Source of the DNA: Clostridia bacterium
GTDB taxonomy: Bacteria; Bacillota; Clostridia; Oscillospirales; CAG-272
Length of the DNA stretch: 64,000 nt
NCBI GenBank assembly: GCA_017937845.1
Contig: JAGBCV010000016.1
Coordinates: 26,299 to 90,298 of the forward strand
Reading direction: 5' to 3'
Shown here: one piece after another, positions 47,734 to 62,398 of the stretch
Layout of the letters: every line of letters starts with the position of its first letter
Position numbering within the stretch: position 1 is the stretch's first letter
The notes under the pieces: model-generated
The model's database searches: none
The model's input: only the letters and a program-made list of their open reading frames with translations
What the model was told of the DNA's origin: nothing
Position numbers and translations under genes: made by a program

Positions 47734-47785
47734 TTTGCAAAAATGAAATTTATCCAAAAAAATCAAAAAAACTTTGGAAAAGGTA

Positions 47786-47814: not shown

Positions 47815-47850
47815 GGTTAAGCCGTCAAGCGAGAGGGCACAAAAGAATAT

Positions 47851-47941
47851 GGAGAAGTCGCCTAGTTGGTCGAGGGCGCACGACTGGAAATCGTGTAACC
47901 GGTAAAACGGTTCGAGAGTTCGAATCTCTCCTTCTCCGCCA
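47851..47941 (+). tRNA. tRNA-Ser(GGA)
   Basis: GGAGAAG acceptor, CACGA-CTGGAAA-TCGTG anticodon arm, long variable arm, GTTCGAATC, GCCA. Confidence 0.96.
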
Positions 47942-47943
47942 GA
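47915..47943 (+). repeat. attL core
   Basis: AGAGTTCGAATCTCTCCTTCTCCGCCAGA, repeated at 62335-62363 with one mismatch. Confidence 0.92.
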
Positions 47944-47964
47944 GCTTCAAAAGCTCAAAAAGTT

Positions 47965-47994
47965 AGGCATCACCTAAAAACATAGGTGGTGCCT
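47965..47994 (+). terminator. element-supplied hairpin after tRNA-Ser
   Basis: AGGCATCACCTA-AAAACA-TAGGTGGTGCCT followed by T-rich tract. Confidence 0.7.
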
Positions 47995-48059
47995 ATATTT
48001 TTTGCGTTTTCCATGTTCTCGGATTCTCACGGATTTTCTTATATTTATCTTATTTTTTG

Positions 48060-48110
48060 GGTGTCAAAACGGGTGTCTTTTTCCGTTTTGGTGTCAAATT
48101 TGGTGTCAAT
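48060..48110 (+). repeat. integrase arm-type direct repeats (left)
   Basis: GGTGTC(AAA) at 48060, 48072, 48090, 48102. Confidence 0.75.
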
Positions 48111-48894
48111 AAATCTGATATTTTTCGTACAATGACGGGAGAAGTTTTCTCCGTCATTTCTCTTTATATAAACGGGCAACGTTCCCCTGCAAATATGAAA
48201 ACATCTGAGCTTACTACACTACGCTCGGAAGCACTACAACACGACTTTTGGCGCAACGCACTATATCTTAGAAGTACACTTGGCACACTGCGCTATGCGT
48301 TGGAAATCGTGGAAAACGCTGTACATGTCAGCAGATAGGCGAAAAAGGGAATGGCGTTTACCACCATTCCCAACGTAAGACTTTGAAACGCGCTCTATGG
48401 AAAACATGAGTTTACCACAGGGCGCGTTTGGTTTCTACTACTGCTATCACTTTTTCTATTCTTTTTTTGAAAAAAGAAAGGTTCATGTTTTGCTTGGGTT
48501 TCCGACCGGGGAACGTCGGCGGTCATCCGTCCGCTCCGCGTGCCTTGGCGGTGTTCTGCGCGCCTTGCTCCGTTTCGTTTGGCTCGATGTCTGTTTTGCA
48601 AACTCCCTTTTGTATCCTGGTGCGTTCCATGTACGTTCCAGTTTGCTACGTTGCACCGTTTTTGGGCGAAAATCTGAAGGGAAGAAAAGGCTTGGAAAGG
48701 TGTGCCGTATGATGTAAACTTAAAAATCTACTGTTTGCTTCTCGCTCTTATTTCGGCGAAAATTTGGAGGTATGGCGAAAGCACGTGGTTAGCTTAGCGA
48801 AATACCGAAGCATGGAGAAAACGCTCCATGTCGTGCAGACTTGTTCAGTTCCACGCCCCTTCGGGTGCTTACACGTCCTCGACGGACGTGGGGG

Positions 48895-49866
48895 TTAAAA
48901 TAGATCGTCAAACGAAAAGGGTGTATTGGTTGTTTGTGGCGGTTCAGCAGTCTGATCAGACACAGGTTCATCGACCGACAGCGTGGATGCAAAAGCTTCA
49001 TCTAATTTAGGGTTCTCAATCAGATCCGAAAGAAAATAATTAAACGACATCACGGATGCAGAGTCTTCAGCGTGTTCGGGATCCTTGGAAACGGGAGGTT
49101 CGGGGACATTGTCGAACAGATCTGTGAGAGGATCGGCAGGAGCTGGAGCAGGATCCTGTTTTCTGTTCTTCTTTTTCTTCTGCTTTTTAAGCGCTTTGAT
49201 AGGAACGGGCGGTTCTGTGATATAGAAGTCGGGAAGCTCAGTGTCGATACTGAATGAGTTAAACATCTTGAAGAGCTTGCGACCTTTGAATTTGTATTTA
49301 GAGAAAGGAACGAAGTCATAGGCATCGATGATCTGACGTGTATTCTTATCGATTGAGATACTTTTCTTGATACATCTGATATAGAATTTTTTCGTTATGA
49401 AATTGAAAAAAGTACGAGATACAAGATAGTAACGTTGAGAGAGCCTGCGAACAGTGATATCGATATCATCATAAGCTTGGGAAGCAAACCACATTTCACA
49501 ACGATAATGTCTATGGGTTTTCAAGTACTTTATCTTGTCGGCGGTTAGCTCCATAAACTTACGGCTGTTGACGTCAATACCTGCTTCATCAATAAGCACA
49601 ACAGAATTTCTGAAATTATATTTTCCTATATCATCCCACTTAATCGGTATCGTTCCTTTACAATCGAAATTGGCATAGATACGGTATTTCTTTTTTGAGT
49701 AATGCGCGACCAACAGTGCAAGCGTGGTAGTCTTGCCACAGCCGGGGGGCGCGAACAACGTAAAAATACAATCTCGTTTGATTCGTGCAGGATCATTGAT
49801 GAAGTGCATCGTGATTTTGAAGATTATCATGATCTGAACCGCAAAAAATATCAACACATATAACAT
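48895..49866 (-). CDS. Zot-like / inovirus pI morphogenesis ATPase
   Basis: N-terminal TM helix, Walker A APPGCGKT, IYANF, Walker B VVLIDEAG, HRHY, ASQ...ID..VR. Confidence 0.85.
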   Translation of the reverse strand: MLYVLIFFAVQIMIIFKITMHFINDPARIKRDCIFTLFAPPGCGKTTTLALLVAHYSKKKYRIYANFDCKGTIPIKWDDIGKYNFRNSVVLIDEAGIDVNSRKFMELTADKIKYLKTHRHYRCEMWFASQAYDDIDITVRRLSQRYYLVSRTFFNFITKKFYIRCIKKSISIDKNTRQIIDAYDFVPFSKYKFKGRKLFKMFNSFSIDTELPDFYITEPPVPIKALKKQKKKKNRKQDPAPAPADPLTDLFDNVPEPPVSKDPEHAEDSASVMSFNYFLSDLIENPKLDEAFASTLSVDEPVSDQTAEPPQTTNTPFSFDDLF

Positions 49867-49920
49867 TTCTTTTTTTCTTCCTTTTCTCTTATTTCTTTAT
49901 TTTTTTCATTCATGGAACAC

Positions 49921-49948
49921 AAAAGCCGCCGCAGTACCCGCGGCGGCT
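49921..49948 (-). terminator. intrinsic terminator after coat genes
   Basis: AGCCGCCGC/GCGGCGGCT stem followed by TTTTGTG on the minus strand. Confidence 0.7.
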
Positions 49949-49971
49949 CTCGTGTTCTTTTTTTTTCCTTT

Positions 49972-50532
49972 TTATGTGCGTTCCTTGAGGCGGATGAGAA
50001 AGCCTACGCCCAAAGAGCAGACGGGCAAACCGATAACAAACAGAAGCATCAAAGCATTTTCGCTGATGATTTTGGAAAAATCGGTTACAACGCCAAAGAT
50101 CATTTCAGAAAAATTATGAACATAAGCCAATACATTAGCATCACGAATCGGAACAAGGTCATAAATAGCGGTATCATCGGTCAAATAAATAGTTATATAT
50201 TCATCATCTTCCGAGCCGAAATATACATATTCGCCTGTCGCACGATTAAAAAAATGATCAACATAAGCATAAGCATGATCTTCAATCTTTAAATAATCCG
50301 CCGAAGAAGTATCAAATACTATTACACGTTCCCGATAAAACTGCACACTATATCTTTTGCCTGCAGCAGAATCAAATGCATACGAAAAATCAATATTCCC
50401 ATCATGATAAGCAAGTGATCCTGCTCTCAAAGTTACTTTGGCAGCAGATGCCGTCACCGAAAGAATAACGGTCAAAGAAACCACACACAAAAAGATACTC
50501 AGAATCTTACGAAACTTCTTTCTTTTACACAC
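49972..50532 (-). CDS. signal peptide + passenger domain + major-coat-like C-terminus
   Basis: Signal peptide ending TASA; C-terminus LPVCSLGVGFLIRL matches LPVISFGVGLLIRV of the adjacent 56-aa ORF. Confidence 0.75.
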   Translation of the reverse strand: MCKRKKFRKILSIFLCVVSLTVILSVTASAAKVTLRAGSLAYHDGNIDFSYAFDSAAGKRYSVQFYRERVIVFDTSSADYLKIEDHAYAYVDHFFNRATGEYVYFGSEDDEYITIYLTDDTAIYDLVPIRDANVLAYVHNFSEMIFGVVTDFSKIISENALMLLFVIGLPVCSLGVGFLIRLKERT

Positions 50533-50568
50533 AAAACATCACTCCCCTCGGAATAAGCCGAGAGAAGC

Positions 50569-50739
50569 TTATGCTCTGTGCATAACGCGAATCAGAAGAC
50601 CCACGCCGAAAGAAATCACAGGGAGCGCCACAGCGGTCAAAGTGAGAAGAGGTGTAGAGGTAATTGTAGTCGCAGTCGTAGTGAGGACGGAACCGATAGT
50701 CGTCATGACGTCAGTAACGCCGGTAAGCAATTCAGCCAT
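50569..50739 (-). CDS. putative major coat protein (pVIII-like), 56 aa
   Basis: Manual translation MAELLTGVTDVMTTIGSVLTTTATTITSTPLLTLTAVALPVISFGVGLLIRVMHRA; AAGGA RBS; amphipathic helix, TM, basic tail. Confidence 0.75.
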   Translation of the reverse strand: MAELLTGVTDVMTTIGSVLTTTATTITSTPLLTLTAVALPVISFGVGLLIRVMHRA

Positions 50740-50850
50740 AATTAAAATCCTTCTTTCTTCTTATTTTTTTGTTTTCTTAATTTTTTCATCCCTCCAAGGA
50801 GCGACCTTGAATATTGAACGTTCATAGGATGATATTAAGGCTTCGGAGCC

Positions 50851-50952
50851 TTAAACTTGAAAAGCCCCGAAGCAAATCGAAAGGAAAAGAGTGATAAGCA
50901 AGATATAAATAAACGGCGAAGATGATGCGCAAAGCGCGATAATTGTCAGCAC
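50851..50952 (-). CDS. small hydrophobic protein (pVII/pIX-like), 33 aa
   Basis: GTG after GGAGG; MLTIIALCASSSPFIYILLITLFLSICFGAFQV. Confidence 0.55.
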   Translation of the reverse strand: MLTIIALCASSSPFIYILLITLFLSICFGAFQV

Positions 50953-50956
50953 GGTA

Positions 50957-51100
50957 TCACCTCCGACTTTTCACAAACGTGAAGATGATAGACACGGCGA
51001 ATAGTGCCACGATCAGCGCGATCAGCTCGATAGAAAGATGCTCGGCAGCTTGCTCGAGGTCATCCACGATAACAGGACCCAATACAGACAAATGGTTCAA
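50957..51100 (-). CDS. small single-TM protein (minor coat candidate), 47 aa
   Basis: TTG after GGAGG; MNHLSVLGPVIVDDLEQAAEHLSIELIALIVALFAVSIIFTFVKSRR. Confidence 0.6.
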   Translation of the reverse strand: MNHLSVLGPVIVDDLEQAAEHLSIELIALIVALFAVSIIFTFVKSRR

Positions 51101-51105
51101 TCATA

Positions 51106-51276
51106 TCACCTCCGGGCAAATGCGCGGACGATGCCGAACAGACCGACGAAGACAACGCCAACGATGGCGGCACTCGCGAGCCATTGGAAGTCGATTCCTT
51201 GGAAGTGGGAGCCTTCGACAGCGATAGGTTCCCACTCGCCGATTATTTCAATCAATAATTGTTTGATGTTGGTCAT
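51106..51276 (-). CDS. small single-TM protein (minor coat candidate), 56 aa
   Basis: ATGA overlap with upstream gene; ...IDFQWLASAAIVGVVFVGLFGIVRAFARR. Confidence 0.65.
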   Translation of the reverse strand: MTNIKQLLIEIIGEWEPIAVEGSHFQGIDFQWLASAAIVGVVFVGLFGIVRAFARR

Positions 51277-51542
51277 GATTTGTTAGCATTGGCGAACGCG
51301 ATCACGTCAGCAAGGCGCATAACTTCTTGCACGTTCTTTTTGAAATCCATGGAGAGGATAACTTCCTCTTTTTCGTTAAGCTTCGGGTCATTTGCGAGGG
51401 GATAATATTTCTTGGCGGTTTCTGTTCCCATACCTTCTTCCGCAGGGAACGGAGAAGCGAAATGATATTCTTTCGCGCGGACAGGCTTGCCATCCTTTTC
51501 ATAATCGATAAATCTGCAACCGCATACTTTCCATAATCTCAT
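51273..51542 (-). CDS. putative ssDNA-binding protein (pV-like)
   Basis: ~89 aa, beta-rich with aromatic/basic hairpin (IDYEKDGKPVR); sits before the small coat genes; GGAGG RBS. Confidence 0.55.
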   Translation of the reverse strand: MRLWKVCGCRFIDYEKDGKPVRAKEYHFASPFPAEEGMGTETAKKYYPLANDPKLNEKEEVILSMDFKKNVQEVMRLADVIAFANANKS

Positions 51543-51756
51543 TTTTTCTTTTACCTCCATTTTTTATTTTTTATCGGTAATTCTAAAATAACACAAATAC
51601 ATTCAAATGTAAATATGATGTTTTGAATCGAAACACGATGTTTTGAATCAAAACCATAATGAATGTATTTTTATTCTTGGATTCAAAAATATTTATACAA
51701 CATTCTCGCCTGCAGAGCGCTGATCACGCCTACCTGCAGGTGATTTCGAGGAATAA

Positions 51757-51789
51757 AAATGCACTCGACCCGAAAGTCAAGTGCTTTTT
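51757..51789 (-). terminator. intrinsic terminator
   Basis: Minus strand GCACTTGAC-TTTCGG-GTCGAGTGC-ATTTTT. Confidence 0.65.
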
Positions 51790-51790
51790 A

Positions 51791-51931
51791 TCAAAGTCGG
51801 TAAATTAAATAACAAAAAATACCTAAAACAAGAGCGAAAGACATTGTACTTGATATCAAATCAAGCATTCTAGTTCCAAGACCAGAAAGAGGCATTTGCC
51901 ACCATGACAAATTACTTATAATTTCATTCAT
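51791..51931 (-). CDS. small single-TM protein, 46 aa
   Basis: AGGAG RBS; MNEIISNLSWWQMPLSGLGTRMLDLISSTMSFALVLGIFCYLIYRL. Confidence 0.6.
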   Translation of the reverse strand: MNEIISNLSWWQMPLSGLGTRMLDLISSTMSFALVLGIFCYLIYRL

Positions 51932-51943
51932 TTAAATTTCTCC

Positions 51944-52810
51944 TTAACCATGTAAAACCTTAAAAACAACCAATGCCGCTACAATAGAGAAAAAAACCCC
52001 CCATTGAACAATTATATTCGACGCAATAGCTTGAGGGAGCCAAGAAACATAAGCTCTAATATCAATAGCGGAAACAACATCATCAAAAATGCTTTGAAAT
52101 CTCTGAATCATATTACCTTCATAGTCATAAAAACCTTGAATGTGGATTTCCGAACAGTAATAATACATATTAGCGTCAGCAAAATCATCCCAGTCATTCG
52201 AGCTTTCGTAAATCAACATAACAGAGGGGTCATTATACCATCCACTCCCAATTTGTCGAGTAAACATAATCGGATTGGATAAATCTTTTTGAAGCGAATA
52301 CATTTTCTCAAACATATCAAGCCAGTCCTCTATTTGCTTATATGCCTCCCAAGTAAAAGCATAACGCAAAAGTCCAAATCTAGCATTTTCGCCACGTATG
52401 TATAGAGACATCAAAGAACGTACCGCTTCAATCATATCAAACTCAGCACTCAAACTTGCTTTTTGAACAATCATGGAACGCCAAGATTGAATATTTTCAA
52501 TCGTAATATAATCACGTCCAACGTCAGAATTATAAAGCAAAACAGCCAAAAAAGAATCCAAATTATCGGTAAAAACAACTTCGGGATCCTGTCCATCATC
52601 ATTTTTATCATACAAAGAATATTTTTGATAATATCCGTCATATTCTTCAAAGTCTTTCCAAGAAGAATCATTTTCACAGTAAACATAAATAAGCCCATTC
52701 AAAGAAACTTGAAATTCGTCATTCGCAGCCGACACTGTTACTGGTAAAAACAACATTACCACAAACATCGCTATCACAAACACACTAAATATACGTTTGA
52801 TACAAAACAC
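51944..52810 (-). CDS. exported protein with C-terminal TM anchor (minor virion protein candidate)
   Basis: Signal peptide ending VSA; C-terminal WLP...WGVFFSIVAALVVFKVLHG. Confidence 0.7.
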   Translation of the reverse strand: MFCIKRIFSVFVIAMFVVMLFLPVTVSAANDEFQVSLNGLIYVYCENDSSWKDFEEYDGYYQKYSLYDKNDDGQDPEVVFTDNLDSFLAVLLYNSDVGRDYITIENIQSWRSMIVQKASLSAEFDMIEAVRSLMSLYIRGENARFGLLRYAFTWEAYKQIEDWLDMFEKMYSLQKDLSNPIMFTRQIGSGWYNDPSVMLIYESSNDWDDFADANMYYYCSEIHIQGFYDYEGNMIQRFQSIFDDVVSAIDIRAYVSWLPQAIASNIIVQWGVFFSIVAALVVFKVLHG

Positions 52811-52815
52811 TTCCT

Positions 52816-54669
52816 TTATTTATTACGTCTTTTGATTATATCGCCACTATGTTTATTTCGATAAACGACTTCCCAACGGGATTCTTTTTTCGCCGAAGAA
52901 GCATCACGTTCTTCACGTTTGCCATAATGATTACCGCCCCGAGTACTAAACACAGCGCCCGAAGGGATTACAATAATGCAGATGAGCGGTATAATAATAG
53001 TTATCACGAAACTCGTACAGAGAAACATCCAAAGTGATATGCCTAATATTTGAATTGAATCAAGCATATCAACAAGATCATCCATAATCACGCCCATTGC
53101 GTAAAAAGCGCCGAACTTATCATGTTCAAACTTGGAATAATAAGCCAAAGACTCTGACTCAATTTTACCATACTTGTTTTCAACTGTCAAGGTATAATTA
53201 TAAAGTCCGCCATCACTCAAATTTATCTCATAAATATCCGGTCTAAGGGCATACGTACCGGATATGATATTTTCAACAATGGTTCTTCCATTCTGCTGAA
53301 TAGACCCGACTGCTCTTGTACCGCTAAACTTATAATGAAGCAAGTTTTCCTCAAGGTAAAATTCTTCAATGACTGGCGCAGCTGCCGTCCAAAAGATGCC
53401 GTTGGAACGTTCCGAAGACGTTGTATAGCGGTCGTAGGTGACGAAGGCTTGTACGAAGATAGTAACCTCTCCCACTTTGTCAACCACGTCATACGGCGCA
53501 AACTCGAAAATTCCATGCGGTATGCTTCTGATCTGCTCCGTTCCATCGGGATATTTGATGATAGCGCGATAGTAGGCATCCTCATCAACGGAACTGAATT
53601 TGATGGTATCGCTCGTTTCATCGTAACGGATAACAGGCGCAAGAAGCGCTTTTTCATAAACGTAGACGGAATAAACGTGCGTGTCGGTCACAAAATTGTT
53701 GAGTTCAATTTCAAACGGCAAAGAACCCTCGGGAATATACGCGCTGTTATGCTCGAGCATGGCATCTGATATGTAACTGTTACATTCGAGCGGAAATGTG
53801 AAAAACGGTTCTTCATGACCGACGACCCAAAGCGCCGTCTTGGTGAACTCCAAAAGCGTCCCCGATGGCAAAGAAAACTCCTCGATACACATATTCATAT
53901 CTTTGTCGGGGTAATACAGTTCGAGCAAAACTTCATCGTTGTCAACGTCGCCGTTTCCAAGATAATTGTATACGCTGAAATAGCTTGCAGTACCGTCAAG
54001 CTCGAACTCATACGGCAGGGAGAACGTCGGAACTGTCGCGGAGTAATATTCGCGCACGGTATCACCTATGGCGAGAGAATCGCACGCTGGATACGTTACA
54101 AGCTCATTGCCGTTGGCAAAGATACCGAACGGCTCGACCGTTATTAGATCACCGACCGCAAGCGTGAACGAGCTTTGAACCATCGCCCCGGTGCTATCGG
54201 GATACGAGAGATTGAAATACCACGTTTCGGCGTTATCGTCTATGATAGGATCGTAAACGATAACGTAGAGAGATTCAGAGCTGATTATAGCCGGGAGCGT
54301 TCCACTGGTGGACGGATTGACGCTGTCAGACGAACCATTCAAGACAGACCAATCGGTCGTGTATCTGCGATACGTCTGACCGAACGAGCAGACGATCTGA
54401 CCGTCAAACACAACGTAATTTGCATTGATGGTAATATCCTTATAAGCTTCTCCATCATCCGTTACGGGGTCGATTTGGAATGAATATGTAGCCCATGAAC
54501 CATCACCTGCGGGATAATATACGTCATAAGTTTGTAAATCGATCGCGTGAACCTTGACCGCTGATATACCACAAGCGACGAGGATCGCCACGAGCGCACC
54601 AAGCAAAATCAGTATAATATTACTGTTCTTCGGTTTTTGAAGCATTGTTTTCACCTTCCTTTTCTTCAA
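52816..54669 (-). CDS. pIII-like attachment protein candidate with internal repeats
   Basis: Signal peptide (VHA), three ~90-aa repeats, two FN3/Ig-like modules, TM helix, basic tail; start uncertain. Confidence 0.65.
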   Translation of the reverse strand: MKKRKVKTMLQKPKNSNIILILLGALVAILVACGISAVKVHAIDLQTYDVYYPAGDGSWATYSFQIDPVTDDGEAYKDITINANYVVFDGQIVCSFGQTYRRYTTDWSVLNGSSDSVNPSTSGTLPAIISSESLYVIVYDPIIDDNAETWYFNLSYPDSTGAMVQSSFTLAVGDLITVEPFGIFANGNELVTYPACDSLAIGDTVREYYSATVPTFSLPYEFELDGTASYFSVYNYLGNGDVDNDEVLLELYYPDKDMNMCIEEFSLPSGTLLEFTKTALWVVGHEEPFFTFPLECNSYISDAMLEHNSAYIPEGSLPFEIELNNFVTDTHVYSVYVYEKALLAPVIRYDETSDTIKFSSVDEDAYYRAIIKYPDGTEQIRSIPHGIFEFAPYDVVDKVGEVTIFVQAFVTYDRYTTSSERSNGIFWTAAAPVIEEFYLEENLLHYKFSGTRAVGSIQQNGRTIVENIISGTYALRPDIYEINLSDGGLYNYTLTVENKYGKIESESLAYYSKFEHDKFGAFYAMGVIMDDLVDMLDSIQILGISLWMFLCTSFVITIIIPLICIIVIPSGAVFSTRGGNHYGKREERDASSAKKESRWEVVYRNKHSGDIIKRRNK

Positions 54670-54802
54670 CAGGTTCGCTCAGACACGGAAGCTGATTGAC
54701 ATGATTTTCGAGCTTTATAATGCGCTTAATCACATCAATGTAATTAAACGTAAGCGTTACCAAGGAAATACCCATCATGATAGATGCAATGATATCCAAC
54801 AT
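54620..54802 (-). CDS. small membrane protein
   Basis: GGAGG RBS, N-terminal TM. Confidence 0.6.
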   Translation of the reverse strand: MLDIIASIMMGISLVTLTFNYIDVIKRIIKLENHVNQLPCLSEPVEEKEGENNASKTEEQ

Positions 54803-55132: not shown

Positions 55133-55145
55133 TTTTATACCTCCA

Positions 55146-55550
55146 TCAAATCGAAAGCACGAACTTCAAGATATTCATTTGCACATGATTCAAAGCGCAG
55201 AGATCATGCTCAGGAAAGCCTTCGCCAAAGTCTTCGTAACATTCGCCACAGAAAAGAACGTCGCCGACAATAACCGCATCTAAATCAATACCGGAATAGA
55301 TATTCCACGCGAGAGGATTGACAGTCTTGCACTTGAGCAATCCCGATTCATCCACGAGCATCACGATGTTATATTTGCGGAATAGCACAGGATATACACA
55401 CTCGTAACAATCGCAGTTGATTGCTTTATGTACGAAATCATTGAATTTTTCGTCGGTGCAGTCAAAAAGCTCGCCGTTGGTATTATCGATTTCTTGAAGC
55501 TCGCCGTTGATTTTCAAAAGTAAGTATTTTCCGTAAAAGTGTTTATTCAT
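55146..55550 (-). CDS. DUF3846-like protein
   Basis: VDESGLLK...NPLA and IVGDVLF pattern; GGAGG RBS. Confidence 0.65.
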   Translation of the reverse strand: MNKHFYGKYLLLKINGELQEIDNTNGELFDCTDEKFNDFVHKAINCDCYECVYPVLFRKYNIVMLVDESGLLKCKTVNPLAWNIYSGIDLDAVIVGDVLFCGECYEDFGEGFPEHDLCALNHVQMNILKFVLSI

Positions 55551-55564
55551 GTCAAATCCTCCAA

Positions 55565-55813
55565 TCAATATCCATGTAAATCATGATCTGCGCAAGAACC
55601 CGAAACGATAGCACCGCAAACGGAACAAATACCATATGCATCTGCTTCAGCTCGACAATCATGAGCATCTGCTTGTTCGCCATCCCAATTGTTAACCATG
55701 CGATATTCATCTCGGCTCAAAGTCTTACGATAATCAGAGCTACCGTTTTCAAACATCTCTTTATTCCAACATTCCCAAAGATAATTTTGACGTTTAACAC
55801 TTATTATTTTCAT
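55565..55813 (-). CDS. hypothetical protein with C-terminal Cys/His cluster
   Basis: HDC...CSVCG...C.DH; RBS upstream of ATG 55813. Confidence 0.55.
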   Translation of the reverse strand: MKIISVKRQNYLWECWNKEMFENGSSDYRKTLSRDEYRMVNNWDGEQADAHDCRAEADAYGICSVCGAIVSGSCADHDLHGY

Positions 55814-57524
55814 TTTCCTTTTCCTCTTTACTTTCTTCATTTACTATAATTTCTCCCGTGACATGGTTCAACATTACGCCGAACTGACCGTTAAATACTT
55901 CTGTTTTATCAAGGACTTCCGCGGCGTGATTGATAAATTCATTCACGTTTTCTTTCGATTGCAACGAAGCGAGCAATCCTCTGTCTTGTCGTGCTTTTCG
56001 TCGGCGTAATTCTGCATATCCGTTATCGAAAAATTCAAATTGGGTACCGTCATCTTTGGGAGCAAACCCATAAAAATCGTTATCATTCAAATAACACAAC
56101 ACGTCTGATATATCTTCATGAAACGATCTTGCATCAACCGAACGTCGGCGCAGAATTTGCAAATGTGCGACGGAATTTTTGATTTTCCGTACAGTTTTCT
56201 TAATATCCGCGCCGATATCACGTTGACGGGTAAGAAGATCGTCGGAATCCACTCCCTCAATCTCACAGCTACGAATACGTTTCCACCAATCGAGATATTC
56301 AATTTCTTCCGTATCGGGGTTTTTGGGATTCTTGCGGTCCTTAACGAACGCTACCGTTTCCGTTGTCAAATATTCTTGGATACGTGCGCGAAGCGCGATC
56401 GTGGCATAAATCGGACGGAGCTGAGGCTCATCTTGGTACTCTTTGGGAATATGACATTCCCAATCCGCTACGTCACGCGCGATCTCGTTATAGAATTTTC
56501 GTTTTGTTTGAAACTCGATATTGAAAACAACGGTGTTTTTCGGAAGAACTCCGCGGAGTTCTTTTTCCAATTTTTCGTTATTATCGGAATCGATGTGATA
56601 TTTTTTCATCAAATCACGGAAACGTTCCTTCAGATCATCGTCATGACCGTATTCCAAATACCACGCCATACGACCGACGAGAATCCCCGTAGCGAACGAA
56701 GCACGTTCATAGGCGTATCGATAAACGTATCGGTCGTACTCAGAGATCAGACCGAGCTTATACCAACGCTCGATGAAATACGCTTTGCGACTTACTTGCA
56801 CTACTTCACGCCCTTTATCATAAGCACGAAAAAAAATACAGTTTGATCTACGATTACCAGCTGAAAAAGTTTCGATATTAATATCTTCACCAATTTCAAA
56901 ATATTTGTTTGCTTTACGAAAAACAGATTTGAAATGATGATTAAGTTGCTTATCGTTAAAATAGCGATTTGCATCTTGAATCAAATTCGTATGGTAGGCA
57001 TAGTCTACTCGGTTGATACCGACCTGCCACGCCGCGAGCTTATACTCGGAAAGAATCTTACCAACGTATTCAAACGAACGCTTGACCGCTTCATATGAAC
57101 CCCACTGAATCAAAGCGCGGGTACGAAGCTGAACCACGATGCGCGGCGTCTCTGACGTCGGTATGCTTTTGGCGATAAAGATATCAAACATTTCGGGCAG
57201 GGAAAGATGATATGCGTACAAGCTGAAGCCTGTCGGCTCGACCGCAAGCCCCATGAAATCAAGCTCGGCGTTCCAATCCTTGCGAACCTTGTCGCGGAGC
57301 AGGTCAAGGTCTATGACCAGTTTGTTGATATTAGGATTTCTATATCCTTGATCTTCAGCCGGGTCTTTTGCTTCCGGGCGGTCGCCCATAAGGCGAACGG
57401 AATAGTATAGGGTATCTATGTGGGAACGAACGCAATGTGCATTGATATCAAAATATTGAGTACGTTCTTCTTGAGTAAATTCGGCAAAAATTTGAGATGA
57501 CGCCGCGGATTTTGGAATACTCAT
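55794..57524 (-). CDS. rolling-circle replication initiator, Rep_trans family
   Basis: IDTLYYS, NRVDYAYH, TFSAGNRRSN..FRAYDKGRE (catalytic Tyr), NIEFQ. Confidence 0.75.
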   Translation of the reverse strand: MSIPKSAASSQIFAEFTQEERTQYFDINAHCVRSHIDTLYYSVRLMGDRPEAKDPAEDQGYRNPNINKLVIDLDLLRDKVRKDWNAELDFMGLAVEPTGFSLYAYHLSLPEMFDIFIAKSIPTSETPRIVVQLRTRALIQWGSYEAVKRSFEYVGKILSEYKLAAWQVGINRVDYAYHTNLIQDANRYFNDKQLNHHFKSVFRKANKYFEIGEDINIETFSAGNRRSNCIFFRAYDKGREVVQVSRKAYFIERWYKLGLISEYDRYVYRYAYERASFATGILVGRMAWYLEYGHDDDLKERFRDLMKKYHIDSDNNEKLEKELRGVLPKNTVVFNIEFQTKRKFYNEIARDVADWECHIPKEYQDEPQLRPIYATIALRARIQEYLTTETVAFVKDRKNPKNPDTEEIEYLDWWKRIRSCEIEGVDSDDLLTRQRDIGADIKKTVRKIKNSVAHLQILRRRSVDARSFHEDISDVLCYLNDNDFYGFAPKDDGTQFEFFDNGYAELRRRKARQDRGLLASLQSKENVNEFINHAAEVLDKTEVFNGQFGVMLNHVTGEIIVNEESKEEKENENNKC

Positions 57525-57619
57525 TCTTATCTCTCTTTCCTTAGAATTTAAGTGACTTTCGCACCTCAAAAAAAGTTAGTTTTTCTTAGGCGGGTGCTGG
57601 TTTTTTATGTTATTATGTG

Positions 57620-57663
57620 GGGGGCGTGTTACAGGTCTGCCCCCGACCGGATTTTCACCGGTC
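57620..57663 (-). promoter_or_regulatory. putative double-strand origin hairpins
   Basis: Minus strand GGGGGC-AGACCTGTAACAC-GCCCCC with adjacent GACCGG/CCGGTC hairpin, just upstream of rep. Confidence 0.5.
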
Positions 57664-57727
57664 TTTTTTTGTTTTTAGCGCGGAAAATGAAAGGTCATCT
57701 TCCGTCGAAAAAAGCGCCGACGTCGTC

Positions 57728-58054
57728 TTACGGGAGAAGCTCGTCCATCACCGGGCGAACGGTCAGATCCAAGACGAACACAGGCGATATATTGAAGCGC
57801 GAAAAAGGGAAGCCAAGGAACGACGGGTTCAGACGTTTGTTGGGATAAAGCGTGAACACGTCTTTATATTTGTTATAAAATCCACGAAAAACCGAAATCC
57901 ACGTTGGCGGCATATAGTCATTGAAGACCTCACTTGCGCGAATCATGTAGCAGGTTTCACCGTTTTTCCAAGGAATCTTTTCCGTGATTTCAAAGCGAAT
58001 TTTACCCGAATGACCATCGGGGGAGGTGTAAGGAAAACCAAAGTATTCACGCAT
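57728..58054 (-). CDS. hypothetical protein
   Basis: GGAGG RBS; overlaps upstream gene in the operon. Confidence 0.6.
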   Translation of the reverse strand: MREYFGFPYTSPDGHSGKIRFEITEKIPWKNGETCYMIRASEVFNDYMPPTWISVFRGFYNKYKDVFTLYPNKRLNPSFLGFPFSRFNISPVFVLDLTVRPVMDELLP

Positions 58055-58274
58055 CGGGAATCACCTCCAGGGAGGATGCAGGAACGTACACTGTGCGAAG
58101 AACAAAAGGACCGAATTGGTGCGGTTCAGAAAATGTGATTTTATAGCAATAGAACACGCCAGGGATATAGTCTGCAACAAGGACAGCTTCACCAATTACA
58201 CGTTCATTGTCGGCGATTGGCACAAGAACACGAGCGCAGGAGCCAACAGGAATGTATTTTGTATCACCAGTCAT
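58047..58274 (-). CDS. hypothetical protein
   Basis: GAGG RBS; operon packing. Confidence 0.6.
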   Translation of the reverse strand: MTGDTKYIPVGSCARVLVPIADNERVIGEAVLVADYIPGVFYCYKITFSEPHQFGPFVLRTVYVPASSLEVIPDA

Positions 58275-58283
58275 ATTATCACC

Positions 58284-58502
58284 TCAATCCATCACCCATT
58301 CACGCATATCATCGATTGAAAGACACTCAGAGGGACAGACGGAACAACCGAGCTGAAAGATAGCGCTGTTCAGAGCTTCCAAAACGTCGTCGGAACGGCT
58401 ATAAACCTTCGTATTGTCCGAAAGCGCATCATACAGGTCAAACATGGATTCCAAGGTTTCGATTGCTTTCTTAAAGTAGTCATCATAATTTTTGATTTTC
58501 AT
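58284..58502 (-). CDS. hypothetical protein
   Basis: GGAGG RBS; ATGA overlap. Confidence 0.6.
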   Translation of the reverse strand: MKIKNYDDYFKKAIETLESMFDLYDALSDNTKVYSRSDDVLEALNSAIFQLGCSVCPSECLSIDDMREWVMD

Positions 58503-58726
58503 CTTCTCTTTCCTCCTCCGATGCTGTTACGGCTCAGAGCCAAGGCATAACGCGCTTTGGAAATGCCAACGGGAGGGATATCCTCACCGGCGAAAAGCTT
58601 TCGTGTGGCTTCCCATGTGCGACCGATGCGACGGCTCAGCTCGCTCACTGTCAAAAATTTGTCATTGCCGAAGACTTCGGCAGCTTCCTCAAGCTCGAGG
58701 CGATAAAGTTCTGTTTCGCGTGCCAT
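58499..58726 (-). CDS. HTH protein, excisionase-like
   Basis: FLTVSELSRRIGRT...TRKLF; AAGGAGG RBS. Confidence 0.55.
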   Translation of the reverse strand: MARETELYRLELEEAAEVFGNDKFLTVSELSRRIGRTWEATRKLFAGEDIPPVGISKARYALALSRNSIGGGKRR

Positions 58727-58736
58727 AATAACCTCC

Positions 58737-58931
58737 TTACGCTTCATCTAAGAACAGATCAGCGACTGTGCAACGCAAGACACTCGCAAAAAGCAACGCC
58801 GTATAAACGTCGGGCGTATAATGACCGCTCTCATAGAGGGATACGGACGAACGCGAAAGGTTCATTTGATTAGCAAGGTCTTTTTGTGTCATTTTGTTTT
58901 TTTCTCTGTAATCTTTTATTCCGTTTTCCAT
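58737..58931 (-). CDS. XRE-family HTH regulator
   Basis: MTQKDLANQMNLSRSSVSLYESG..P. Confidence 0.88.
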   Translation of the reverse strand: MENGIKDYREKNKMTQKDLANQMNLSRSSVSLYESGHYTPDVYTALLFASVLRCTVADLFLDEA

Positions 58932-58958
58932 TTTTTCCTCCTTGCTGTATTTTGATTT

Positions 58959-59186
58959 TTAGGAAACGACTTCTTTTTCGTCTTTCAAAAGCTCGTCGAC
59001 GGTGCAACCGAGGACGGATGCGATTTTAATAAGTTTTTCTACCGAAGGATTTTTATGACCGTTTACAATTTTGGAAACCATCATTTCAGAAACACCAATC
59101 GCATGTGCGAGTTCTTTCTGAGAGATTTTCTTGTCATACATAATCATCATAACGTTTCTTCCAATTAGCATCTTTTCAACCTCCAT
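58959..59186 (-). CDS. Cro-like XRE HTH regulator
   Basis: ISQKELAHAIGVSEMMVSKIVNG.KNPS. Confidence 0.88.
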   Translation of the reverse strand: MEVEKMLIGRNVMMIMYDKKISQKELAHAIGVSEMMVSKIVNGHKNPSVEKLIKIASVLGCTVDELLKDEKEVVS

Positions 59187-59189
59187 ATA

Positions 59190-59274
59190 TTGACTTTTTC
59201 TTTATTTTCATGTTATAATGGTTTAGTAATAAACTAAGTGATTATATTATAACTTAAAACACTTAAAAAGTCAA
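59190..59274. promoter_or_regulatory. face-to-face promoter pair (genetic switch)
   Basis: Plus TTGACT(59190)-18-TATAAT(59214) with extended TG; minus TTGACT(59274)-17-TATAAT(59251). Confidence 0.65.
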
Positions 59275-59358
59275 TAAAGAATCACAAAATATTTTAAGTT
59301 TGTGAATTTCTTACAAATAAAGTGTTTTCAGTTCTTGCAGTTTTTACGGGAGGAAAAT

Positions 59359-59742
59359 ATGTTTAAGAAAAATTTTATCAGACTTTGCACATTAAAAGAT
59401 GAATCTCCAACATCCGTATGCAAGAAAATCGGTATTACGGCTGCCGCTTTTTCACAATGGAACGACAACACAATACCTCGAAAAATTACACAACAAAAAA
59501 TTGCGGATTATTTTGGAATAACAGTTGAAGAACTATTATCAGAAGATGATACTGCTATATCGTTCAATGTAAACAATGGAATTATTGGTAATGAAAACAA
59601 AAATAACGTTGTATCTGTCAGTATAGATTCTTCTTCCAACATTGGAGAATTTGAAAAAGAAATTCTGCACGTATGCAAAAGATTAGATACAAAAAAGAAA
59701 CACGCCCTTTTGACGAAGGCGTATGAATTACTAAACGAATGA
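59359..59742 (+). CDS. CI-like XRE repressor
   Basis: SPTSVCKKIGITAAAFSQW...P...QKIADYFGITVEELL; GGAGG RBS; divergent from cro-like genes. Confidence 0.85.
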   Translation: MFKKNFIRLCTLKDESPTSVCKKIGITAAAFSQWNDNTIPRKITQQKIADYFGITVEELLSEDDTAISFNVNNGIIGNENKNNVVSVSIDSSSNIGEFEKEILHVCKRLDTKKKHALLTKAYELLNE

Positions 59743-59763
59743 ACCTCAAGGAGATAAATTGAC

Positions 59764-61236
59764 ATGGGACTATTAGAAACATTGCTAATATGTGTCGCTC
59801 TTTGGGTCGTAATATTATTTGGCATTACGCTGATCTCGATAATTCGTGATGACACAATAAACTTAAAAACATTACTTGATTTTATAAAATCTTCTTTAGA
59901 ACGAAGAAAAGAAAAACATAAAAACAAAAAAACGGCAAACAAACCGAAGAAATTTTCTTTCTCTGAATTTACGAAAGACATATTTTCAGATTTAAGACCG
60001 TCAGAAAAGAAATTCGCGCTCGAAAGTTCGACAAAAGAAGAATGGCTTGCGGATAAAACTCTTGTATCACAAGAACTACAAAGAACAAGTTCCGCAAACA
60101 AAAGAATCATCAATAACATTTCCATAAAATCCAACGGAAAAACAACAAAGATTGATTTTGTACTTATCAATGAATACGGAATCTTTGTTGTCAACATTCA
60201 AAATTGCATTGGATTCGTCACAGGAAACCGAGAAGATCAAAAATGGGAACAAAGAGTTGGCTCTGCACGATATCACATTCCAAACTCCGTTATACAAAAC
60301 AAGTCTGAGATAGAAGCATTAAAAGATTTTTTGAGCGTAGGACATTTACCTCGATACAAATTTTTTTCTGTTGTTGTCTTTATACAAAACAACGCTAACG
60401 ACCTCTGTATAGAAAACGTTGTAAATTTTTGCGATTTAAGAAATTATATAAATTCTTTCAACATAAAAACACTTACCGTTCATGAGATTGACAGCGTATA
60501 CAAACAACTCGGCGGAAAAGAGCCACCGAAACCTCAAACACGGCCGAAACCTCAAGAGGAGCCGAGGCCTCAAACACGGCCGAAACCTCAAGAGGAGCCG
60601 AGGCCTCAAACACGGCCGAAACCTCAAGAGGAGCCGAAGCCTCAAGCACAACCGGAACCGCAGATGTATCCTATACCACGAAAATCATCTGCTCCTCAAA
60701 CACCTACGTTTGAACCGGGCATAAAAGGGGAATTGGGTGAATATCTTGTCGCCAGCAGACTTAGAGAAACAAAATCATCGGTCAAAAAAATAATCAACAA
60801 TATCGTCATCAAAACATCGGACGGTAGGACAAGTCAAATCGACCATATTTTGATAAACGAATTTGGTATTTTCGTAGTTGAAACGAAAAATTATAGCGGA
60901 AATATTTATGGTGGACTTACACATCAAAACTGGTTGCAATACATAGGGGATAGAAAAGAATCTTTTTATAACCCTGTCATGCAAAATGAAACGCATATAA
61001 AACGATTAAGAGAAGTTTTGTGTATTGAACATCTGTATCAATATAAAATTTATTCTATCGTTGTATTCGTTCAAAATAACGCCAATAAAATCGATATAGC
61101 AAACGTTATCAACCTATCCGACTTAATCCCTTATGTCAATTCTTTCAACGTAAAAACAATGACAACAAATGAAATTGAAAGTATTTATCATCAACTTTTG
61201 ACTATCAAAAATCAAAACTACATTCATCATCTGTAA
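59764..61236 (+). CDS. membrane-anchored tandem NERD-domain protein
   Basis: N-terminal TM; two homologous domains, the second with G.LGE, QIDHILI...GIFVVETKNYSG, NPVMQN. Confidence 0.85.
   Translation: MGLLETLLICVALWVVILFGITLISIIRDDTINLKTLLDFIKSSLERRKEKHKNKKTANKPKKFSFSEFTKDIFSDLRPSEKKFALESSTKEEWLADKTLVSQELQRTSSANKRIINNISIKSNGKTTKIDFVLINEYGIFVVNIQNCIGFVTGNREDQKWEQRVGSARYHIPNSVIQNKSEIEALKDFLSVGHLPRYKFFSVVVFIQNNANDLCIENVVNFCDLRNYINSFNIKTLTVHEIDSVYKQLGGKEPPKPQTRPKPQEEPRPQTRPKPQEEPRPQTRPKPQEEPKPQAQPEPQMYPIPRKSSAPQTPTFEPGIKGELGEYLVASRLRETKSSVKKIINNIVIKTSDGRTSQIDHILINEFGIFVVETKNYSGNIYGGLTHQNWLQYIGDRKESFYNPVMQNETHIKRLREVLCIEHLYQYKIYSIVVFVQNNANKIDIANVINLSDLIPYVNSFNVKTMTTNEIESIYHQLLTIKNQNYIHHL
60532..60639 (+). 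repeat. 3 x 36-bp coding tandem repeat (PQTRPKPQEEPR linker)
   Basis: CCTCAAACACGGCCGAAACCTCAAGAGGAGCCGAGG x3 (last copy has one change). Confidence 0.95.
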
Positions 61237-61247
61237 GGAGGTCTACT

Positions 61248-62279
61248 ATGTTCAAGCGCGCTGACGGACGTTGGTGCGAAAAAATATCAGAAAAGGGAAA
61301 GACACACTATATTTACGCAAATACCAAAAGGGAACTGTTGAAGAAAATTCAAGAGAAACAATTTTTCGTGGAACATGGCGAACCATTTGAAGACGTTGCC
61401 GCCGATTGGAAAGAAGAACATTTCGCTTCCATGAAGCCAAACAGCCGAAAGCCTTACAATGGAGCTTATAATCGAGCCATAGAGCATCTTTCGGGAATCT
61501 GCATCAACGATATTACAAAAAACGATATCGCACGAATTATCGATGATATGAAGCGTCAAGACTTCGCCAAAAAGACCGTTGCAACGCAGATCACCGTTTT
61601 GAATCTTATTTTCAAATGGGCAATGCAACGCGATCGCGCCGACAAGAACCCTTGCGAACTTATCGAAACACCGAAAAACCTGAAGCGGACAAAAAGAGAA
61701 ATGCCCTCCGAAGAGGACATTCAAAGGATTATGGATAACGTTGATTCAGATCCGTTCGGGCTTTTCGCTTATTTCCTATACTTCACCGGGTGTCGTTTCG
61801 GGGAAGCTCTTGCGCTTACGGGAAAGGATATTGACCTTGAGCGTGGAGAAATCCGAATTTCAAAATCTTTGTATTTCGACAACGGTCCGAAGATCGGAAC
61901 ACCTAAGACAGAGAGCGGAACGCGCACCGTACCGCTTCTTGACTGCCTAAGGGAGCATTTGCCGAAGCTGAAAAAGAATCAATACCTGTTTTCACATTTA
62001 GAGGACAGGAGCGAACCATTCACCCAAAAGCGAATCTTTACGCAGTGGAAGAAGTACCAAGAGCGTACCGGCGTGAGCTGCACACCCCATCAGCTACGGC
62101 ATGGCTTCGCTACGTTGCTATTCGACGCAGGTCTGACCGCAAAAGATGCACAGCCCATACTCGGACACGCTACCGCGGAAATGACGATTGATATCTATAC
62201 GCATATCACAAATTCACGCGCAAAAGGTAATGCCGACAAACTGAATACATTCGTAAACAACAGCCGAAAATCGAAATGA
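61248..62279 (+). CDS. tyrosine integrase
   Basis: TGCRFGE, PKT, HQLRHGFAT, LGHA, IYTH; adjacent to attR. Confidence 0.95.
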   Translation: MFKRADGRWCEKISEKGKTHYIYANTKRELLKKIQEKQFFVEHGEPFEDVAADWKEEHFASMKPNSRKPYNGAYNRAIEHLSGICINDITKNDIARIIDDMKRQDFAKKTVATQITVLNLIFKWAMQRDRADKNPCELIETPKNLKRTKREMPSEEDIQRIMDNVDSDPFGLFAYFLYFTGCRFGEALALTGKDIDLERGEIRISKSLYFDNGPKIGTPKTESGTRTVPLLDCLREHLPKLKKNQYLFSHLEDRSEPFTQKRIFTQWKKYQERTGVSCTPHQLRHGFATLLFDAGLTAKDAQPILGHATAEMTIDIYTHITNSRAKGNADKLNTFVNNSRKSK

Positions 62280-62280
62280 C

Positions 62281-62300
62281 GGTGTCAAAGTGGTGTCAAA
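62281..62300 (+). repeat. integrase arm-type direct repeats (right)
   Basis: GGTGTCAAA x2, same motif as 48060-48110. Confidence 0.75.
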
Positions 62301-62334
62301 GGCGCGAAAAGGTAGATGATTGCTGACTTGTTGA

Positions 62335-62363
62335 AGAGTTCAAATCTCTCCTTCTCCGCCAGA
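62335..62363 (+). repeat. attR core (duplicated tRNA-Ser 3' end)
   Basis: AGAGTTCAAATCTCTCCTTCTCCGCCAGA. Confidence 0.92.
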
Positions 62364-62398
62364 AAAAGCACACATTTTTTTCAAATGTGTGCTTTTTT
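62363..62398 (+). terminator. probable original tRNA-Ser terminator
   Basis: AAAAAGCACACATTT...AAATGTGTGCTTTTT immediately after attR. Confidence 0.8.

Follow-up and report, generated by a model that had tools for sequence, protein, structure and literature searches.

A probable temperate filamentous phage genome integrated at a tRNA-Ser gene of an uncultured Clostridia bacterium

The stretch analysed here, 64,000 nucleotides (nt) of contig JAGBCV010000016.1 (positions 26,299 to 90,298) in the Clostridia bacterium assembly GCA_017937845.1 and hereafter called the window, contains a 14,420-bp element at window positions 47944-62363 that is very probably the integrated genome of a temperate filamentous phage (Tubulavirales, inovirus-like) of an uncultured Clostridia host. 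The element is gene-complete and cleanly bounded, and it is of a kind already catalogued in thousands. A first-pass annotation, made from the DNA letters, had proposed an apparently intact inovirus-like prophage in a tRNA-Ser gene, with att repeats, its own tyrosine integrase, a repressor/cro switch, a Rep_trans gene, a gene resembling those for single-stranded DNA (ssDNA)-binding proteins (SSB-like), a run of tiny transmembrane (TM) open reading frames (ORFs) and a terminal Zot/pI ATPase. The prophage reading, the repeats, the integrase, the switch, the run of TM ORFs and the ATPase are all borne out by the analysis below; the other points stand in part, as described where each is discussed.

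The insertion site sets the limits of the element. The integration target is a tRNA-Ser gene with anticodon GGA (47851-47941, plus strand; identified by ARAGORN and scoring 58 bits to the Rfam tRNA family), the 3' end of which is rebuilt by attL. A repeat search located direct repeats at 47910-47943 (attL) and 62330-62363 (attR) that are identical at 31 of 34 positions, and three-way alignment places all three mismatches upstream of a 21-nt identical core (47923-47943 and 62343-62363), the attR copy being a phage-borne, tRNA-like 34-mer. When the right flank was queried in 16 genomes of the same genus, the match in one of them (G008) was found to adjoin the same tRNA-Ser(GGA) gene, intact; by BLAST, window positions 46617-47943 and 62498-64000 align to this locus at 88.8% and 96.2% identity, respectively, and the two flanks are joined with a 29-nt overlap at the att core and no DNA between them. 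The G008 tRNA has the attL-type T-arm, and the DNA downstream of it is the continuation found to the right of attR. Since both flanks are contiguous in G008, 47944-62363 is a discrete 14,420-bp insertion with exact boundaries. Thus attL consists of host tRNA, core and phage DNA, and attR of a phage-borne tRNA-like arm, core and host DNA, an arrangement characteristic of a circle, here of 14,420 bp, that an integrase has inserted. Four copies of the motif GGTGTCAAA are present in the window, each of them beside an att core (0.53 copies expected; none of 100 shuffles reached four), with two copies in the P' arm at 48060-48098 (plus strand, 117-155 nt inside attL) and two in the P arm at 62281-62300 (plus strand, 43-62 nt before the attR core); these copies are candidate arm-type integrase sites.

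The genes nearest attR make up the lysogeny module. The tyrosine integrase, of 343 amino acids (aa), is encoded at 61248-62279 on the plus strand, ending 51 nt short of attR, and matches Pfam Phage_integrase (E 6e-24; 85.2 bits against a cut-off of 27.1) and PHROG 1 (E 1.5e-70); the catalytic R...HxxR...H...Y residues can be read in the translation within the motifs CRFGEAL, HQLRHGF and GHATAEMTIDIYTH. The switch consists of a predicted CI-type helix-turn-helix (HTH) repressor of 146 aa (59302-59742, plus strand; PHROG 8, E 2.9e-10, and Pfam HTH_26 at E 2.4e-4 and 21.7 bits, just under the 22-bit cut-off), which faces two minus-strand HTH_3 genes of 64 and 75 aa (58737-58931 and 58959-59186; Pfam E 7.8e-14 and 2.4e-16, with PHROG regulator matches). 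The 75-aa gene is Cro-like and is the first of a leftward operon that ends with the pI ATPase; the rightward operon comprises the repressor, a NERD-domain protein and the integrase, which are probably co-transcribed. The 115 nt that separate the Cro-like gene from the repressor contain two back-to-back promoter-like sites, at 59190-59219 (plus strand) and 59274-59246 (minus strand), each an 11/12 consensus match and nothing beyond a consensus match; across the whole, promoter-like sites are not enriched (38, against 34.1 in shuffles).

The last gene of the leftward operon (48895-49866, minus strand) encodes a predicted pI/Zot-type assembly ATPase of 323 aa, with an N-terminal membrane helix at residues 1-24 that is its sole hydrophobic segment by hydropathy, the Walker A motif APPGCGKT and a disordered, acidic and proline-rich tail. 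It matches PHROG 197 ('Zot-like toxin') at E 5.7e-10, and tblastn against a collection of 50,697 phage records returned 52 records at E <= 1e-3, all below 60% identity (best E 3e-22) and named bajarodino virus (28), Inovirus sp. (15), Dulem virus (8) or Bacteriophage sp. (1); the best 20 of the 52 are 5.2-8.6 kb in length, and Zot is annotated under the match in 19 of them. In an alignment of 39 pI members (38 full-length relatives and the window protein), 34 reach E <= 0.001 against Pfam Zot (the best 1.7e-24), and a profile of the other 38 recognizes the window protein at E 1.9e-32. The AlphaFold2 (AF2) model has a mean predicted local distance difference test (pLDDT) score of 67, with about 90 over the P-loop core (residues 30-150); residues 2-24 form a helix, and the tail is disordered. 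The entries ranked 1, 2, 7 and 8 in a search of BFVD are 'Zonular occludens toxin [Inoviridae sp.]' (best E 2.2e-15). The PHROG match, the tblastn records, the profile of relatives and the modelled fold together confirm the predicted ATPase as one of the pI/Zot type; it groups with these proteins and not with VirB4 or FtsK, the comparison on which the first-pass annotation had staked its inovirus-like reading. A pI with an N-terminal TM domain corresponds to the 'atypical' variant described in 30% of inovirus species (Roux et al., 2019; PMC6813254). Relatives are scattered: five of 41 genomes searched, G000 included, have one, and among 15 other genomes of the same genus there are two, both distant (32% identity), so that the element is sporadic in the host genus. 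A search of IMG/VR with pI peptide patterns yielded 203 pattern matches, none of which was confirmed, and found no near relative.

Replication would be initiated by the product of a 591-aa ORF at 55794-57569 (minus strand), for which an ATG at 57524, preceded by a sequence resembling a ribosome-binding site (RBS), is the likely start, giving 576 aa. From its fold this protein, here called Rep, is predicted to be a rolling-circle initiator of the TATA-binding-protein (TBP)-like, Rep_trans type. A word-indexed search recovered 395 relatives at E <= 0.001, and none of the 120 listed carries a Pfam domain; a Rep profile run against 1.84 billion cluster representatives found 427, 299 and 215 at E <= 1e-3, 1e-10 and 1e-30, and tblastn with Rep found no match in the 50,697 phage records. 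Neither the Rep ORF nor the ORF at 44912-46105, taken with the start codons assigned here, has an exact counterpart in the protein collection. An alignment of 35 sequences has 60 invariant columns, all of which are retained in the window protein; among them are Tyr (Y55, Y118, Y250, Y304, Y400 and Y518 in ORF numbering), Asp and Glu residues. The AF2 model built from this alignment (pLDDT 84.8) was compared with the PDB by Foldseek, in which the top six matches are 4cij (four chains), 4cwe and 4cwc (E 4.5e-9 to 1.3e-6), with the TATA-binding proteins ranking after these Rep_trans initiators; VIA-align gives Z scores of 12.6, 10.8 and 10.4 against 7.9 for the best TBP, over approximately 220 residues (222 at Z 12.6) and at root-mean-square deviations of 4.4-4.6 Å. 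The matching structures are RepSTK1 (4cij) and RepDE (4cwc/4cwe) of Gram-positive plasmids, which have the TBP-like pseudo-twofold fold in common with residues 42-441 of the model; the window protein has about twice their length, carries both a helical insertion and a C-terminal helical extension of some 110 residues, and is only 14-16% identical to them.

With respect to the Rep_trans family itself, the window protein lies below every PF02486 threshold, and a weak Pfam Rep_trans match appears in 13 of the 35 aligned relatives (best E 0.004), other families recurring in no more than two. The Rep_trans assignment of the first-pass annotation therefore holds for the modelled fold (Foldseek and VIA-align) and not for the sequence: Rep fails the PF02486 sequence definition yet appears to have the Rep_trans fold, and it is best described as belonging to a far-diverged sister family. 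The label of rolling-circle initiator would thereby attach to a family of about 400 clusters that is left 'hypothetical' in databases and is not named by the standard catalogues. Rep_trans proteins with a TBP-like fold are the commonest initiators in the Tubulavirales, according to the available text of a 2026 taxonomy paper (PMC13595969).

Support for the filamentous-phage reading comes from the company that Rep keeps elsewhere. We assembled 76 Rep-related loci, 26 on IMG/VR contigs (4.4-11.8 kb in length) and 50 on contigs from species-representative genomes, the latter mostly from Eubacteriales, Oscillospiraceae and Clostridia metagenome-assembled genomes (MAGs). With an iterated profile, which recovered 45 ORFs in 44 loci, a pI gene is found on the Rep strand in all 26 IMG/VR contigs and in 18 of the 50 genome contigs; the iterated profile was needed, a single-sequence phmmer search with the window pI having detected it in only 9 of the 76 loci. 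Nine of the 52 loci that are whole contigs (L020, L025, L027, L030, L038, L072, L074, L075 and L076) have identical terminal overlaps of 54-141 nt, which are k-mer-sized and mark the contigs as circular assemblies (net size 7.3-10.8 kb); Rep and pI are both present in every one of the nine. The presence of Rep and pI on one strand in every viral contig, and of circles with both, argues for a filamentous phage.

The closest pI relatives belong to a 7.5-/10.0-kb pair of these circles, L072 from a Congzhengia sp. MAG and L074 from roe-deer gut (E 3e-35 and 3e-37). Their genes run Rep, an 81-aa soluble protein, a 569/583-aa protein with signal and anchor, TM proteins of 41-50 aa, one or more 55-65-aa TM proteins and pI; they share with the window element the gene order, the Rep family (31-33% identity) and a homologous coat-like protein of 55-65 aa before pI. 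They differ in having no homologue of the window integrase and no NERD gene, in a shorter pI (196-227 aa) with no TM segment by hydropathy, where the window pI has one at its N terminus, and in encoding one large anchored protein where the window element encodes three. Four components account for the greater length of the window element: the NERD-containing lysogeny module (about 3 kb), small genes flanking Rep (about 2 kb), two additional anchored proteins (about 1.4 kb) and a non-coding region of 0.95 kb. Megablast of the whole element against the 50,697 phage records gave no DNA match.

Candidate structural genes occupy the interval between pI and Rep, all on the minus strand. Hydropathy identifies six single-TM ORFs of 30-90 aa at 50569-51931 and 54620-54802, and when the window was scanned for 1.4-kb frames with at least four non-overlapping, same-strand ORFs of this size, each holding a strongly hydrophobic 19-mer, only 10 of 1,252 frames qualified, all of them at 49901-52201 on the minus strand; the run of tiny TM ORFs recorded in the first-pass annotation is thus a cluster unique in the window. 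The first of the six, a 56-aa single-TM protein with a basic C terminus (50569-50739), has the layout expected of a major coat protein and is the best candidate for that role, because it is homologous to the 65-aa protein that precedes pI in L074 (32% identity, E 1e-6) and is directly followed by a terminator-like hairpin (50568-50541); it matches no named coat family. The others are a 33-aa hydrophobic ORF at 50851-50952 (candidate minor coat) and a 47-aa ORF at 50957-51100 with acidic N terminus and basic C terminus (candidate coat), both with the RBS GGAGGTGAT; a 56-aa ORF at 51106-51276 with acidic N terminus and the C terminus RAFARR (candidate coat), the start of which overlaps the stop of a 95-aa ORF; a 46-aa ORF at 51791-51931 with the RBS AAGGAG (candidate minor coat); and a 60-aa ORF at 54620-54802 with an N-terminal hydrophobic segment and the RBS GGAGGAGGTGA. 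Most of the five ORFs at 50569-51931 have a basic C terminus.

Three larger proteins have the architecture of anchored virion components. A 186-aa protein (49972-50532), with a signal peptide or anchor and a C-terminal TM segment by hydropathy, is a candidate minor virion or assembly protein; it is preceded by the RBS-like GGGGAGTGAT and matches no family in Pfam, PHROG or NCBIfam. A 288-aa protein (51944-52810) with a signal peptide and C-terminal TM anchor, likewise matching no family, is a candidate minor virion protein, and a 617-aa protein of the same architecture (52816-54669; likely start ATG 54645 after an RBS-like sequence, giving 609 aa) is a candidate adsorption protein, pIII-like in its architecture. 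In position and architecture the latter corresponds to the 569/583-aa proteins of L072 and L074, although it has no significant alignment to the 583-aa protein of L074. The 95-aa soluble protein (51273-51560) matches no Pfam, PHROG or NCBIfam family, and does not align with the 81-aa protein that follows Rep in L074; its nearest named ESM-Atlas clusters are Putative_G5P (0.86) and CTX_RstB (0.85), both ssDNA-binding families of filamentous phages and both under the 0.9 level. These offer a lead that it may be a gene-V-like ssDNA-binding protein, and the SSB-like gene of the first-pass annotation survives in this sub-threshold form and not as a family match.

Between attL and the ATPase gene lies an ORF-free region of 951 nt (47944-48894), listed on the minus strand, with no credible ORF and no Rfam family. 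Taken as minus-strand, coding-sense ssDNA, 47944-48895 folds with a z-score of -4.76, none of 20 shuffles being as stable, and it contains several perfect or near-perfect hairpins and short repeats. The intergenic region of filamentous phages contains the origins and the packaging signal, and this region is a candidate for the same role. We envisage that, when repression is lifted, the element would excise; Rep would nick a plus-strand origin, which probably lies within or close to either the structured 951-nt region or the rep gene, and the rolling-circle product would be circular ssDNA of the window's minus strand. This could be coated by the 95-aa protein, and the pI ATPase would then thread it through the membrane while the small coat proteins are added, with the large anchored proteins capping the filament and binding the receptor; virions would leave without lysis, a secretin being unnecessary in a monoderm host.

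The element can also be traced in metagenomes. Its words were found in gut and faecal metagenomes of animals, in 20 runs from 10 studies among the matches listed, four of these runs possibly being the source; the contigs of four runs (X1 and X2, both possible source runs, and X5 and X6 from other studies) were compared with the locus. The X1 and X2 contigs end at the tRNA/att repeats and are thus uninformative on excision. X5 and X6 hold diverged variants with the same flanks, in which segments 49964-50506, 51729-52890 and 59282-59862 are replaced or missing, and an X6 contig spans attR (61599-62422). Related strains from elsewhere thus carry the element in the same position, and it is mosaic in make-up. 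The gene on its right flank, of the BNR/sialidase type, has named relatives in 'Ruminococcaceae/Oscillospiraceae bacterium' (62% identity) and 'Clostridia bacterium' (54%); from these and the named relatives of Rep the host is probably a member of the Clostridia, within the Oscillospiraceae/Ruminococcaceae, consistent with the host suggested at first pass.

A number of results weigh against the conclusion that this is a filamentous phage genome, or one that is still active. Rep matches no family in Pfam, PHROG or NCBIfam, gives nothing meaningful against PDB sequences either alone or as a profile, and has 14 viral or circular-contig homologues of which none matches Rep_trans at E <= 0.1. The ATPase itself falls below the Pfam Zot cut-off (E 0.0075; 16.2 against 20.3 bits), as one of the five aligned pI members that do not match, and the Zot comparison suggested at first pass thus succeeds with its relatives and not with the window protein. 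No ssDNA-binding protein is established among the 24 ORFs, and no relatives of the three large anchored proteins, or of most of the small ORFs, could be detected in the 76 related loci, for which reason their roles are assigned by architecture. Neither an attP nor an empty-attB joint is present in the contigs of X1, X2, X5 and X6, which cannot show rare forms, and the depth of the prophage in X1 (12.5-14.5) equals that of its flanks (15.6 and 14.4). Lastly, no pI could be detected in the loci with the closest relatives of Rep (L043-L062, at 35-44% identity), where the best E against the profile was above 0.1.

Some of these points would be explained if the element were an inovirus-derived prophage that no longer makes virions, either domesticated and kept for its cargo (the NERD protein and a lipoprotein) or cryptic and simply undecayed. 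The chromosomal depth and the lack of circular or excised forms in the contigs are as this explanation would have it, as are the mosaic strain variants in two other studies, with their replaced or missing segments, and the fact that Pfam, PHROG and NCBIfam searches identify neither an SSB nor an excisionase (among the 24 ORFs, with NCBIfam covering 20). On the other hand, all 24 ORFs are open, tightly spaced and provided with RBS-like sequences, and the two att cores agree at each of 21 nt. The catalytic residues of the integrase are intact, and Rep retains 60 of 60 invariant family positions. Chronic inoviruses, moreover, need not raise their copy number much. We regard a cryptic element as unlikely, though to be taken seriously; the 'apparently intact' of the first-pass annotation is right as to open genes and identical att cores, and the contigs provide no sign of excision or replication.

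That the closest kin of Rep are without pI means that the replication/lysogeny half of the element and its morphogenesis half differ in their nearest kin, and the element is mosaic in this sense also. L046, L049, L059 and L067 share the window integrase (E 1e-58 to 1e-74), and in some of them the Cro-like gene or the repressor is shared as well, with the order conserved. One could suppose that a tRNA-targeting integrative module (integrase, NERD protein and repressor) has captured an unrelated episomal inovirus, and that the 14.4 kb do not constitute one mobile phage. Such a composite would account for the G+C content of 31-32% over 59000-60500, compared with 40-47% elsewhere, and for the fact that the best relatives of the integrase, the repressor and the Cro-like gene are those of the pI-less loci L067, L049, L059 and L046. 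It is nevertheless very unlikely: there is one pair of att repeats only, comparison with the empty site shows just one clean insertion, the X6 contig from another study bridges attR beside the integrase, and the pI-less loci join the same integrase-repressor-Cro module to the same Rep family in the same order, from which the lysogeny module and Rep appear to be a standing unit.

The pI-less elements merit description in their own right. In L046, L047, L050, L051, L052, L058 and L061 (for example, L047:10001-19791), which share the window Rep family, the leftward operon terminates in a protein of 692-761 aa with four or five N-terminal TM segments and, in six of the loci, a Walker A motif; this protein takes the place of the small coat proteins and pI, and has no Pfam or PHROG match. 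Comparison of these ATPases of about 750 aa with the pI alignment by hhalign aligns only the Walker A stretch (46 columns, probability 82%). These Rep-bearing temperate elements without pI constitute an unclassified element type. Rep homologues are also encoded by two Clostridioides difficile plasmids, pCd1_4 (L092, 6,830 bp; E 1e-50) and NZ_ON887052.1 (E 2e-48), both small, circular and labelled 'non-mobilizable'; pCd1_4 has ten annotated coding sequences on one strand, all hypothetical and several TM-rich, of which none matches the pI profile. Two short contigs (3.3-4.1 kb) with Rep homologues of 35-37% identity fall in other bins, L073 (which has a weak pI-profile match, E 1e-4) in that of a Methanobacteriaceae archaeon MAG and L070 in a Coriobacteriaceae bin; their placement outside the Clostridia is probably a binning artefact of small circular elements.

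Rep_trans-type proteins act as relaxases in Tn916-type elements, and the locus might accordingly be taken for a non-viral integrative mobilizable or conjugative element in which Rep is the relaxase and the P-loop ATPase the motor of DNA transfer. The occurrence of one Rep family both in elements with a multi-TM Walker A protein and in small C. difficile plasmids is compatible with this, yet the window ATPase groups with Zot rather than with FtsK, VirB4 or TraG, and the remaining genes offer nothing of the required kind. We scanned the 24 ORFs drawn from the ORF lists with Pfam and PHROG (and 20 of them with NCBIfam) and obtained no terminase, portal, capsid, tail, lysin, relaxase, type IV secretion system, relaxase-accessory, coupling-protein or conjugation family, in agreement with the absences noted at first pass; the only such names in the scans are weak P-loop cross-matches of the ATPase, and no ORF matches a coupling-protein, FtsK_SpoIIIE or VirB4 family at E <= 0.01. 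Nor is there a role in conjugation for the small single-TM proteins, which include a homologue of the L074 protein preceding pI, and we consider a conjugative element extremely unlikely in comparison with the integrated filamentous phage that we favour.

Judged by these sequence relationships, Rep is a cassette that replicons of different kinds have in common, in line with what has been written on inovirus replication modules in general; free exchange of such modules with plasmids is described in the available parts of PMC13595969 and PMC6668415. A bolder proposition is that Rep, at 500-590 aa, represents an uncatalogued Rep_trans sister family (427 clusters at 50% identity, for which Pfam offers no model that matches above threshold) common to at least three kinds of Bacillota replicon, namely Zot phages, small plasmids and the elements with an ATPase of about 750 aa, and that the window element is a recombinant founding, at family level, a new lineage of filamentous phages of Oscillospiraceae that are large (14 kb) and carry cargo. 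We hold this to be doubtful as a whole; if true, the window element would join the lysogeny/replication half of an undescribed temperate class to the morphogenesis half of an inovirus.

Among previously known filamentous phages, CTXphi and Pf-type phages resemble the window element in being lysogenic with a repressor switch, and the window repressor has a faint, sub-threshold similarity to RstR (E 0.0034; 17.6 against 80 bits). These temperate phages of Gram-negative hosts integrate via host XerCD at dif, whereas the window element has its own tyrosine integrase, a tRNA target, no secretin and a monoderm host. The inovirus-like set of Roux et al. (2019; PMC6813254), as characterized in the text available, is closer in its pI-like ATPase marker, its structural proteins of 30-90 aa with a single TM domain, its tRNA-gene att sites with tyrosine recombinases and its lineages from monoderm hosts. 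The introduction of that paper gives genome sizes of approximately 5-15 kb and its discussion 5-20 kb, and the 14.4 kb of the first-pass annotation, correct at 14,420 bp, is thus not the unusual size that it was taken to be. The Enterocloster and Hungatella inoviruses (Burckhardt et al., 2023; PMC10061712) and the cultured Gram-positive inoviruses B5 and CAK1 are likewise filamentous phages of gut Clostridia or other monoderm hosts and are secreted through no outer-membrane secretin, but their particle secretion has been demonstrated, as far as the accessible text reports, whereas the window element is known from sequence; they are absent from the 52 records retrieved with the window pI at E <= 1e-3. 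According to Burckhardt et al. (2023; PMC10061712), reports had been limited to two Gram-positive hosts until their work, which brought in five more species, and a search of the literature for inoviruses in a rumen or Oscillospiraceae-type context returned none among the matches listed.

Since filamentous phages of gut monoderms are known mostly from sequence, the locus is of use as a cleanly bounded and gene-complete example from ruminant-gut Clostridia. It leaves the current understanding of inoviruses unchanged, and the new points are modest ones: the reconstruction of attB and attP, the family assignment of Rep, the NERD cargo and the sister elements. The exact attB and attP sequences permit the direct design of polymerase chain reaction or read-mapping assays.

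The NERD protein (59764-61236, plus strand; 490 aa) is the product of the middle gene of the rightward operon, flanked by the repressor and integrase genes, and is predicted to be membrane-anchored by an N-terminal TM segment. It matches Pfam NERD in two stretches (E 1.3e-51) and PHROG 21557, the two NERD domains being separated by a proline-rich tandem repeat of the PKPQEEPRPQTR type (18 nt, seven times; 60518-60697). It was considered as a PglW/MAD6-type defence system, an identification that we rejected as only the NERD part resembles the PglW/MAD6 defence kinases; PADLOC called no defence system, the protein matching the NERD part of PglW/MkoA only. The NERD protein is probably cargo of the lysogeny operon, expressed in the lysogen, and may have a role in defence or exclusion.

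The remaining genes of the leftward operon flank Rep, all on the minus strand. Four small soluble ORFs of 108, 75, 72 and 82 aa without significant family matches lie between the switch and Rep (57728-58747), and the 82-aa product could be a protein of the HTH/excisionase type. On the other side of Rep are a Cys-rich basic protein of 91 aa taken from the ORF list (55565-55840) and two accessory genes, for a 140-aa DUF3846 protein (55146-55568; Pfam E 2.8e-6) and a 109-aa DUF6440 protein (54803-55132; Pfam E 2.9e-10), which is lipoprotein-like in the similarity of its signal.

Two further features were observed at the ends of the element. A terminator-like hairpin of 13 pairs followed by a T run (47964-47995) stands directly 3' of the tRNA-Ser gene; since it lies within phage DNA, the phage appears to supply the terminator of this tRNA in the lysogen. 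Just to the right of attR, at 62390-62505, is an interspersed repeat of about 113 nt that is missing from the G008 empty site and skipped in an X5 contig; it is present in more than 20 copies in the host genome and in many more across genomes of the same genus, sometimes in tandem, and looks like a miniature inverted-repeat transposable element or repetitive extragenic palindrome (MITE/REP-like).

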